Positions 114 through 1,735 of a DNA stretch of 1,842 nt are shown here, in pieces. The stretch is from Escherichia coli (GTDB lineage: Bacteria > Pseudomonadota > Gammaproteobacteria > Enterobacterales > Enterobacteriaceae): the NCBI RefSeq assembly GCF_044324875.1, contig NZ_CP172193.1. The stretch is one strand, 5' to 3'. The first letter of the stretch is position 1. The number at the start of each line of letters is the position of its first letter. The position numbers and the translations under genes were made by a program. Below the pieces are notes generated by a model. It ran no database searches. It worked only from the letters and a program-made list of their open reading frames with translations, and was not told where the DNA came from.

Positions 114-638
114 ATGCTGGAACAGCGATTTGAAGACTTTGAACAGCAAAAACGGCGAGATCACAAGGCACAAGATCAAGCCCAAAACACTAAGCAAAAA
201 CGAGATCGGTTGAATCCACCTGACTGGTCACAAGTCACTAAGGCTGGTTGGAATATGTTGGACGCTATATCCGAGAAGGTTCCTAGGGCATTTAGGCTAT
301 ATTCTTTTTTTGCTCAAAATATAGATAAATCGTGTGGAGCTGTTGTATGTGATCAAAAATTCCTAGCTGATTATTTCGGGGTTAGTTTAAGGACAATTCA
401 ATATTGGATCGGAGATTTAGAACGTATTGGTGCAATAGTAAAAATACCAGTAGGTATTTATTATGCTTATGCTTTAGATCCTTATCAGGTATGGCGTGGA
501 TATAATAAATCTAAAAAATATGCAGCATTTAACGCAAAAACATTAACTCAAAAAGATGGTGTTATTGATCGTAAGTTGCGGCTCATGCTCTCTAGAAGAG
601 AAGATTTTGAAAGCTCACTCAAGCCCTCTAAATCATGA
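114..638 (+). CDS. Winged-helix (HTH_36/RepL-like) DNA-binding protein; candidate plasmid replication initiator or replication-associated regulator (~175 aa)
   Basis: Six-frame ORF 15..638. Start reassigned to ATG 114 because AAGGA at 102-106 sits 7 nt upstream, whereas ATG 15 has no Shine-Dalgarno and its first 33 codons overlap the palindrome array and encode an atypical Cys/Arg/Val-rich peptide. Stop TGA 636-638. Motif FLADYFGVSLRTIQYWIGDLERIGAI (nt ~360-437) fits the recognition-helix pattern of HTH_36-type winged helices found in small-plasmid Rep proteins. N-terminus is a charged low-complexity stretch (EQRFEDFEQQKRRDHKAQDQAQ). AT-rich codon usage. Family assignment is from recall, not a search. 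Confidence 0.65.
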   Translation: MLEQRFEDFEQQKRRDHKAQDQAQNTKQKRDRLNPPDWSQVTKAGWNMLDAISEKVPRAFRLYSFFAQNIDKSCGAVVCDQKFLADYFGVSLRTIQYWIGDLERIGAIVKIPVGIYYAYALDPYQVWRGYNKSKKYAAFNAKTLTQKDGVIDRKLRLMLSRREDFESSLKPSKS

Positions 639-955: not shown

Positions 956-1063
956 GCATTGCTCTTTTGCCGCCTCAAAATCCCTTGCGTGTTTTTGCTC
1001 CCCGATCTCCAGAACGACCGAGCCGCCACGGTTCCGGCAGCGCCTTGAGCGCAACCGGAAACC

Positions 1064-1083
1064 GTCTGGGGAGAACCCCAGAC
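1064..1083. other. Perfect hairpin: 8-bp GC-rich stem (gtctgggg / ccccagac) with AGAA loop
   Basis: Seen directly: 1064-1071 is the exact reverse complement of 1076-1083. Not followed by a T-run on either strand, so not a canonical intrinsic terminator. An imperfect longer stem (acggttccgg 1028-1037 / ccggaaaccgt 1053-1063) lies just upstream. Consistent with a structured RNA or DNA element. Confidence 0.4.
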
Positions 1084-1379
1084 CCCCATCGCTGTAACAC
1101 CGACGGTCTACGACCACCTACCAACCGCGTGACTGTCTGTTTCGTGCAAATGGGCTTTGCAGGGGGCTGGCGCGGTTCCTGGCGACCTGAAAGCCCCTGG
1201 TTAGGGGTATCGGCGCGCCTGACCTCCTGAGAGCCTCTGTAAGCGTTTTTCGCGCCTTCCATGCCCTGGCGGGCATCTAAAACCCGTTTCGTGCGTCTGA
1301 GAGCTTTTGAGCGCGTTTGAGGGGCTATCTGGCGACTCATCCCCGAAAGAACAACAACGGGATCACCGACAACATGCGA

Positions 1380-1447
1380 GAGGTGATCCCGCTCGCCGCA
1401 AGTCGATGACCGAGCGTAGCGAGCGAATCGACGAGGAAGCGGAAGAG
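1380..1447 (+). other. ColE1/pMB1-family conserved origin-proximal segment (region between oriV and bom; possibly the primosome assembly site region)
   Basis: Hand alignment of 1380-1447 (gaggtgatcccgctcgccgcaagtcgatgaccgagcgtagcgagcgaatcgacgaggaagcggaagag) with the pBR322/pUC sequence gagctgataccgctcgccgcagccgaacgaccgagcgcagcgagtcagtgagcgaggaagcggaagag (recalled from memory) gives about 53/68 identities with no gaps. Orientation and distance to the bom homology match ColE1-type plasmids. The primosome-site assignment is inference. Confidence 0.6.
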
Positions 1448-1483
1448 AACCGGAAGCCACATTGAGCACTTACGCACTGATGC

Positions 1484-1508
1484 GGGGTGTCGGGGTGAAG
1501 CCCTGACC
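1484..1508. repeat. Left arm of a 25-bp inverted repeat (23/25 match to the reverse complement of 1711-1735)
   Basis: Seen directly: ggggtgtcggggtgaagccctgacc at 1484-1508 versus the reverse complement of 1711-1735, ggggtgtcggggcgcagccctgacc. Arms are about 200 bp apart and bracket the predicted nic region. Confidence 0.8.
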
Positions 1509-1513
1509 AGGTG

Positions 1514-1551
1514 GTAATCGTATCGGCGTGCGTGCGCGGTCATACGATTAC
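1514..1551. other. Hairpin with 10-bp perfect stem (gtaatcgtat / atacgattac) and 18-nt GC-rich loop, inside the oriT region
   Basis: Seen directly: 1514-1523 is the exact reverse complement of 1542-1551. Lies between the two arms of the 25-bp inverted repeat. Function unknown; possibly an accessory protein binding site or single-strand initiation structure. Confidence 0.4.
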
Positions 1552-1672
1552 ACATCCTGTCCCGATTTCTGAGGCGTTTTAACGGTGAACGGACGGCAAA
1601 AACACGATAGAGCTGTTGAACGTGAAAACCACGAAATCTGGCAAAAATCACGGCTGGCGAGGCTTGCAGAGG

Positions 1673-1735
1673 AGTAAGCCAGTATACACTCCGCTATCGC
1701 TACGTGACTGGGTCAGGGCTGCGCCCCGACACCCC
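1673..1735. other. ColE1/pMB1-type oriT (bom) nic region; predicted nic on the minus strand within CTGG/CTTA (between + strand positions 1678 and 1679)
   Basis: ccagtatacactccgctatcgctacgtgactgggtcagggctgcgccccgacaccc (1679-1734) differs at a single position from the pBR322 bom sequence recalled from memory (complement strand ...tcatggctg... versus ...tcagggctg... here). The preceding taag gives the CTGGCTTA nic octamer on the minus strand. The nic position is recalled from the ColE1 MbeA literature and is approximate. Confidence 0.75.
1711..1735. repeat. Right arm of the 25-bp inverted repeat (partner of 1484-1508); corresponds to the canonical bom inverted-repeat arm
   Basis: Seen directly (see partner feature). 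This arm is the copy that matches the pBR322 bom sequence; the left arm is the extra inverted copy. Confidence 0.8.

Follow-up and report, generated by a model that had tools for sequence, protein, structure and literature searches.

The window, a stretch of 1,842 nucleotides from Escherichia coli, is a complete circular plasmid of 1.84 kb without transfer genes. It carries a ColE1-type origin of transfer (oriT) core at positions 1675-1735 on the minus strand, and this core is probably usable through relaxase-in-trans mobilisation in cells that also contain a ColE1-type plasmid and a conjugative helper (probability roughly 0.7). Sequence and database comparison establishes which cis sites are present, that the circle is closed, and that trans functions are absent; the mechanism is inferred from these results. 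The ColE1-type site appears to be one of three helper-specific entry points of the plasmid and would be the most demanding of them, requiring both a mobilisable ColE1-type plasmid and a conjugative plasmid. Judged by its sequence, the plasmid is unremarkable among small plasmids that hitch-hike on helper plasmids.

The ColE1-type (MOBP5/HEN) core is a hairpin-to-nick segment. The minus strand of the window contains the ColE1 60-mer GGGTGTCGGGGCGCAGCCCTGACCCAGTCACGTAGCGATAGCGGAGTGTATACTGGCTTA once and without a mismatch (1675-1734), and 0 of 200 shuffles matched it even when 3 mismatches were allowed. BLAST revealed 60/60 identity with positions 1166-1225 of NZ_CP070126.1, a genuine colicin E1 plasmid of 6648 bp with cea, rop, MobC, MbeB, and MbeD. 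Positions 1675-1734 are likewise identical (60/60) to the ColE1-like mob plasmid RCS76_pII, and thousands of ColE1-like plasmids match the core at 93-100%. Against the pBR322 sequence, the core has one mismatch. The minus strand has the octamer CTGGCTTA at 1682->1675. If the nick of ColE1 is CTGG|CTTA, as we take it to be after Varsaki et al. 2003, the predicted cut would fall between 1679 and 1678. The distal hairpin GGGGTGTCGGGGCGCAGCCCTGACC (1735-1711, minus strand) is followed by 33 nt and then by CTGG|CTTA, and the distal 25-mer is predicted to fold as a hairpin in single-stranded DNA. Two hallmarks of ColE1-type oriTs are therefore present, the nick octamer and homology 5' of the nick that includes the GC-rich hairpin, and the near-identity to the ColE1-family bom proposed in the earlier note, with the octamer at 1682-1675 of the minus strand, is confirmed.

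The extent of the bom homology needs to be restricted. BLAST against ColE1 supported the hairpin-to-nick core and gave no homology beyond 1675-1734/5; the similarity extends no further than 4 nt past the nick on its 3' side and the base of the distal hairpin on the other. Immediately 3' of the nick, the window reads CTTAC-TCCTCTG versus CTTAAC-CATGCGG in ColE1. The reference ColE-type oriTs in oriTDB span 83-89 bp, compared with 60-61 bp of homology kept here. On the hairpin side, ColE1 has rop and the mob genes, while the window has the boundary with an AT-rich replicon module. Other nick motifs (F, R388, RSF1010, and CloDF13) were searched in the window, and none was found exactly.

The site thus resembles the ColE1/pMB1 bom in pBR322, with the same nic-proximal core and the CTGG|CTTA octamer. 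Like pBR322, its carrier is without mob genes and would need them in trans; the bom of pBR322 is mobilised in trans by ColE1/ColK mob functions. Unlike ColE1, the plasmid keeps only the hairpin-to-nick core; rop and the second priming site are replaced by other sequence, as is everything from 5 nt 3' of the nick onward. Its replicon is RepL-like and of the Col(MG828) type, not the RNAI/RNAII replicon of ColE1 and pBR322.

The core lies in a GC-rich cassette of ~850 bp (893-1738), which also holds an I-complex oriT, an IncX4-type site, and a site similar to single-strand initiation (ssi) sites. The I-complex (R64-like, MOBP) oriT occupies 1484-1575 on the plus strand, with a predicted nick between 1559 and 1560. 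It is composed of the 25-mer GGGGTGTCGGGGTGAAGCCCTGACC (1484-1508), the inverted repeat GTAATCGTAT/ATACGATTAC (1514-1523/1542-1551), and, 8 nt on, CATCCTG|T. The same 8-nt spacing from inverted repeat to nick was reportedly seen by Furuya and Komano in R64. The site shows 93% identity over 86 bp to intergenic DNA located 14 bp from the mobA(nikA)-relaxase gene of the IncK2/Z plasmid pBOKZ_020007, and ~85% identity to the same position adjoining nikA-nikB in IncI-gamma/K1 plasmids. The two repeat arms are exactly those of K2/Z, and the z-score of the fold of the site is -4.0. Both the inverted repeat with CATCCTG|T 8 nt later and the homology to nikA-adjoining DNA are consistent with an oriT of the I complex. 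This site (plus strand) and the ColE1-type site (minus strand) are convergent, and their predicted nicks are 119 bp apart.

The IncX4-type oriT-like site is found at 909-957 on the plus strand. Its inverted repeat of ~40 nt (909-928/929-949) is directly followed by TATCCTG|C, and the predicted nick is 956/957. The site matches, at 57 of 60 positions, a sequence of pIncX4_LSP295/15 located just downstream of pir and the next ORF. The anatomy is equal in R6K, where a long inverted repeat is followed by CTATCCTGCAT in two inverted copies, one beside ddp1 and the other between bis and ddp3. The site thus has two traits expected of an IncX (R6K-like) oriT: TATCCTG|CAT directly after a long inverted repeat, and homology to the sequence adjoining pir-bis. 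By analogy with the positions in R6K/IncX1, the site in the IncX4 plasmid itself is likely to be a functional oriT. The motif YATCCTGY occurs 2 times in the window versus 0.22 expected, and each occurrence follows an inverted repeat. Among relatives of the plasmid, the outer arms and TATCCTGCATTGC are invariant, and the inner palindrome exists in 4 versions. The palindrome of the window is the variant of the IncX4 plasmid pLSP295, and that of pLH09-a-F is another IncX4 variant. Literature searches for Col(MG828) with oriT, or for the IncX4 oriT, returned nothing specific.

The ColE1-type and I-type sites were compared among relatives by aligning ten family members and counting the variable columns in each region. 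In the ColE1 core (1675-1735), 1 of 61 columns is variable, versus 23 of 99 in the adjoining spacer (1576-1674); the Fisher test of this difference gives p = 7e-5, and such p-values are only indicative because the aligned sequences are related. The I-type nick region (1552-1575) has 2 variable columns out of 24, and the I-type inverted repeat (1509-1551) has 24 out of 43. The changes in the arms of this repeat are compensating, as seen in pMG828-1 (CATTTGTC/GACAAATG). The near-invariance of the ColE1 core points to either constraint or repeated homogenisation against ColE1.

These data bear on a rival explanation, which is unlikely: the ColE1 core may be a non-functional relic of ColE1-derived DNA containing ssi and bom, in a plasmid mobilised only via the I-complex oriT, the IncX4-type oriT, or both. 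The homology is cut to 60 bp with both flanks replaced, and the ssi and nic homologies remain in the order and orientation of ColE1, as expected for a leftover block. The experimental precedent, pBuzz, concerns I-complex-type oriTs. In addition, the relatives that have the core only are typed as non-mobilizable by MOB-suite. These relatives, which are common, belong to a lineage of 1822 bp (NZ_CP107125.1), in which the I-type core (1491-1572) is deleted and the left 25-mer and the ColE1 core are kept; the closest relatives of the window are typed as mobilizable, and the core alone therefore fails the oriT criteria of MOB-suite. However, a relic is not expected to remain nearly invariant beside a variable spacer, nor to be kept in a lineage that has lost the I-type core. 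The retained stretch is, moreover, exactly the hairpin-to-nick segment that such relaxases would recognise, judging from the biochemistry of MOBP and MOBQ relaxases. Use of the core in mobilisation remains the preferred reading.

The 25-mer of the I-complex oriT has a counterpart in the ColE1-type core. The two 25-mers (1484-1508 and 1711-1735) are 92% complementary and constitute a long-range inverted repeat that brackets both convergent oriTs. The 25-mer opens both the I-type and the ColE1-type sites here, and it occupies the homologous place in the oriTs of ColE1, the I complex, and pSZECL_a. Within it, the hairpin motif GGGTGTCGGGG (1485-1495 and 1724-1734) is common to the oriTs of ColE1, the I complex, and the L/M type (pSZECL_a). 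This motif is one base off the CloDF13 nick sequence GGGTG/GTCGGG, which is cited in PMC5935869.

Such an inverted repeat raises the question of whether the core is kept for a role other than transfer, either in recombination with ColE1 mediated by the relaxase or RecA (forming cointegrates) or as an inverted-repeat arm in replication. The perfect identity to ColE1 could reflect gene conversion, and two records of 7475 bp and 2544 bp resemble multimers or cointegrates. However, the conservation spans the whole 61 bp including the nick octamer, beyond the 25-mer, and a replication function was supported by no tool result. A stretch of 60 bp is also short for efficient homologous recombination. 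A role outside transfer is thus improbable as the reason for the conservation of the core. Of the two records, NZ_CP069986.1 (2544 bp) joins the RepL module to the Rep of 1549-bp plasmids, and in NZ_CP019270.1 (7475 bp) the family sequence is present four times. Both may be natural, having arisen as cointegrates or multimers through the shared cassette, or they may be artefacts of assembly.

The window was shown to be a closed circle by comparison with NZ_CP070127.1, a circular E. coli plasmid of 1843 bp, which is 99.0% identical across 100% of the window. It is typed as Col(MG828), and its sole annotated gene encodes RepL (WP_045145680.1). The last 60 bases of the window joined to its first 60 bases were found in this circular sequence with 0 mismatches. 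Since the end-to-start junction is exact in a circular relative, the sequence beyond 1842 is position 1, in the upstream region of rep. Among the 19 differences between the two plasmids, 13 are inside the inner palindrome of the IncX4-type site, and the hairpin at 915-947 is the only cluster of differences.

No gene for mobilisation was found on this circle. Searching the doubled window by tblastn with MbeA, MbeB, MbeC, MbeD, Rop, NikA, and NikB gave nothing significant. The only ORFs with any support in the window are rep (114-638) and an ORF at 657-875, both on the plus strand. Pfam gave no match for the ORFs at 657-875, 975-1469 (minus strand), and 1337-1651 (minus strand); the latter two overlap the GC-rich cassette and are treated as spurious because of the lack of a Pfam match. 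Coding potential for a relaxase, MbeC, NikA/B, or Rop is absent from the entire window, and mbeA and mbeC, which would adjoin the oriT in a complete ColE1-type mob region, are found nowhere on the circle. The ORF list, Pfam, and tblastn thus agree with the earlier note on the absence of a relaxase, mbeC, and rom, whereas its suggestion that mob genes may lie beyond the window is contradicted by the closed circle. An ordinary complete mob region with its relaxase gene just outside the window can be dismissed as extremely improbable, for although ColE1-like plasmids do have rop and mob genes on that side of nic, the window is the entire circle and the tblastn searches for MbeA-D were empty.

The right flank was described earlier as AT-rich and without an obvious gene start, and this description is correct; the GC content drops after ~1740, and no ORF starts there. 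The AT-rich flank (1739-1842) continues across the circle junction into 1-113, the upstream region of rep. Inverted repeats with TTTCGTAC motifs are found upstream of rep at 23-48 and 51-68/71-88. This region (1739-1842 and 1-113) is probably a promoter or a replication-origin/Rep-binding region rather than the start of a mob gene. A promoter and terminator scan of the window performed no better than on shuffled sequences.

The rep gene (114-638, plus strand) encodes a protein of 174 aa, a RepL-like helix-turn-helix initiator of the Col(MG828) type. It was matched by Pfam RepL with the E-value 2e-4, and a search of NCBIfam with it gave no match. The ORF at 657-875 encodes 72 aa, is preceded by a strong GGAGG ribosome-binding site, and corresponds to a hypothetical protein (WP_141071555.1) in relatives; it belongs to no family in Pfam or NCBIfam. 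This ORF is kept in the closest relatives, and an unrelated ORF of 95 aa is in its place in pMG828-1-type plasmids. RNAI/RNAII was not found in an Rfam scan of the window, and the plasmid is therefore not a ColE1 replicon. The same scan gave a weak match to a group II intron D1-D4 fragment at 1311-1396 (plus strand), with 13.6 bits against a gathering score of 49 and E = 0.45; it is regarded as a chance match. This segment overlaps a 10-bp hairpin.

As no cognate relaxase is encoded in cis, any use of the ColE1-type oriT needs Mbe proteins in trans. A co-resident mobilisable plasmid of the ColE1 family would supply MbeA and MbeC (and MbeB/D). With the relaxosome assembled on the segment from hairpin to nick, the cut in the minus strand would be made at CTGG|CTTA, 1679/1678. 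A co-resident conjugative plasmid (of F, I, P, or W type) would then give the coupling protein and the pore through which the minus strand leaves the cell. For each of the I-complex and IncX4-type sites, its cognate conjugative plasmid alone would suffice, and the exported strand would be the plus strand, on which the ssi-like site is located. A cassette of borrowed cis sites may in this way let the plasmid exploit several types of helpers and export either strand. The earlier prediction that the element is mobilizable only with a ColE1-family relaxosome in trans thus holds for the ColE1-type site, which needs the Mbe proteins, but not for the plasmid as a whole, in which the I-complex and IncX4-type sites are also present.

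Evidence on the co-residence of helpers comes from two hosts only. In the host of the 99% relative NZ_CP070127.1, a colicin E1 plasmid that has mob genes and a conjugative plasmid of the IncF type are also present. This trio matches what the mechanism would need, although the match is circumstantial. The host of a 97% relative has conjugative plasmids of IncI-gamma/K1, IncX3, and IncF.

The ssi-like (primosome assembly) site is found at 1389-1447 on the plus strand, with 83% identity to positions 1013-1071 of the ColE1 plasmid NZ_CP070126.1. We take it to be the equivalent of the factor-Y site of pBR322. In ColE1, positions 1013-1071 follow the oriV motif at a distance of ~115-175 nt and precede the nic region by ~95 nt. 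The ssi-like site and the nic core of the window have the same order and orientation as in ColE1, and the I-type oriT is between them. A perfect 10-bp hairpin (1358-1367/1382-1391) precedes the ssi-like site. Weaker matches to the site are seen in Col156 (ColE2-like), just after rep, and in IncX4 plasmids. The role of ssi in the ColE1 family has been described (PMC5935869), and 1389-1447 is a possible lagging-strand or single-strand origin of the plasmid. The second priming site of ColE1, which is on the transferred strand of ColE1 beyond the hairpin, is absent from the window. The strand exported by the ColE1-type oriT would seem to carry no evident priming signal, which counts against the use of this oriT in transfer.

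The cassette is widely distributed. It is 90-98% identical in other Col(MG828) plasmids with different Rep alleles, including pO26-S1 and pMG828-1. At least 359 PLSDB records carry at least 80% of 1480-1740, and they are mostly 1549-bp plasmids such as pO26-S1. Both pMG828-1 (NC_008486) and pO26-S1 (NC_011266) belong to the same replicon family as the window and share the GC-rich cassette, but their recognition hairpins of the I-type and IncX4-type sites are different, as are their Rep alleles or accessory ORFs, and neither record has an annotated oriT. As a tentative reading, the cassette could be a portable mobilisation unit in which the nick motifs are frozen and the hairpins are patch-swapped to match helper variants, so that the plasmids track their local helpers. 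This reading covers hundreds of Col(MG828) plasmids of 1.5-1.9 kb, with three MOBP-class oriT mimics and a priming site. No description of such a hairpin-swap cassette for Col(MG828) plasmids was found in the literature covered, outside of which Moran & Hall 2019 lies. If anything in the analysis is new, it is this combination of three oriTs with exchangeable hairpins in one cassette.

Several known systems are comparable. According to papers that cite it, pBuzz (Moran & Hall 2019, Plasmid 101:10) is a small rolling-circle plasmid without a relaxase; it has two oriTs in inverse orientation, and a B/O plasmid mobilises it. The plasmid analysed here resembles pBuzz and relatives such as pSZECL_a in being a cryptic plasmid of ~2 kb with no relaxase and with two inversely oriented oriT mimics. 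It is distinguished by the origin of the inverted oriTs from two families (I-complex and ColE1) and by the third, IncX4-type site. The relative pSZECL_a has a ColpVC replicon with a Rep of 330 aa, and only the 25-mer is common to both plasmids. Two inverse oriTs are thus shared with pBuzz-like plasmids, but the replicon, judged on the relative pSZECL_a, is not the same. Because of this different replicon and the sharing of the 25-mer only, the plasmid is not regarded as a member of the pBuzz family.

Orphan oriTs have been observed in other plasmids. The plasmid pST1030-3 has an orphan mob-associated oriT and was transferred together with two others, a mob plasmid and an IncI1 plasmid. The orphan ColE-type oriT of pSe-Kan was not used by IncP functions alone, which indicates that the dependence on Mbe proteins is strict. 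Plasmids with an oriT and no relaxase (pOriT) that have ColE1-like oriTs have been described, and they depend on a mobilisable plasmid (pMOB) and a conjugative plasmid (pCONJ) (Ares-Arroyo et al., NAR 2023; PMC10123127). The pOriT plasmids with a ColE1-like oriT mostly have a ColE1 replicon and are thought to arise by relaxase loss, and among the E. coli plasmids that bear an oriT, ~88% have just one (PMC10123127). The window corresponds to a pOriT, being a complete circle with rep, three oriT-like sites, and no relaxase. Unlike those pOriTs, it has the ColE1 core on an unrelated replicon and within a multi-oriT cassette.

The oriT mimics of Staphylococcus aureus, which are carried by non-mobilisable plasmids and used by helpers of the pWBG749 family, have helper-specific subtypes whose specificity is reportedly set by hairpin variation. 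The likeness to the cassette is in principle only, since the relaxase family and the hosts are unrelated.

Tiny plasmids of this kind are very common in E. coli, and typing based on relaxases overlooks their potential for transfer. The calls of MOB-suite conflict within one plasmid family, and the RefSeq records carry no annotation of the oriTs. If the ColE1 core, the I-complex oriT, and the IncX4-type site were recognised, these plasmids could be placed in helper-dependency networks. The plasmid would also be a compact natural system for asking how many helpers are within reach of a plasmid of 1.8 kb. The practical value is modest, and no concept is changed, as orphan oriTs and relaxase-in-trans mobilisation are established. 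The finding is unsurprising to specialists because orphan ColE1-type oriTs are established and near-identical plasmids are already public.

A similar pair of oriTs was observed in CP098988.1 (2524 bp), in which positions 566-1021 contain, one after the other, a ColE1-type core (97%), rop, and an I-type oriT (79%). The plasmid is relaxase-less and has a ColE1 replicon, and its oriT pair is the same but divergent. As it carries both oriT types around rop, the pairing recurs on different backbones.
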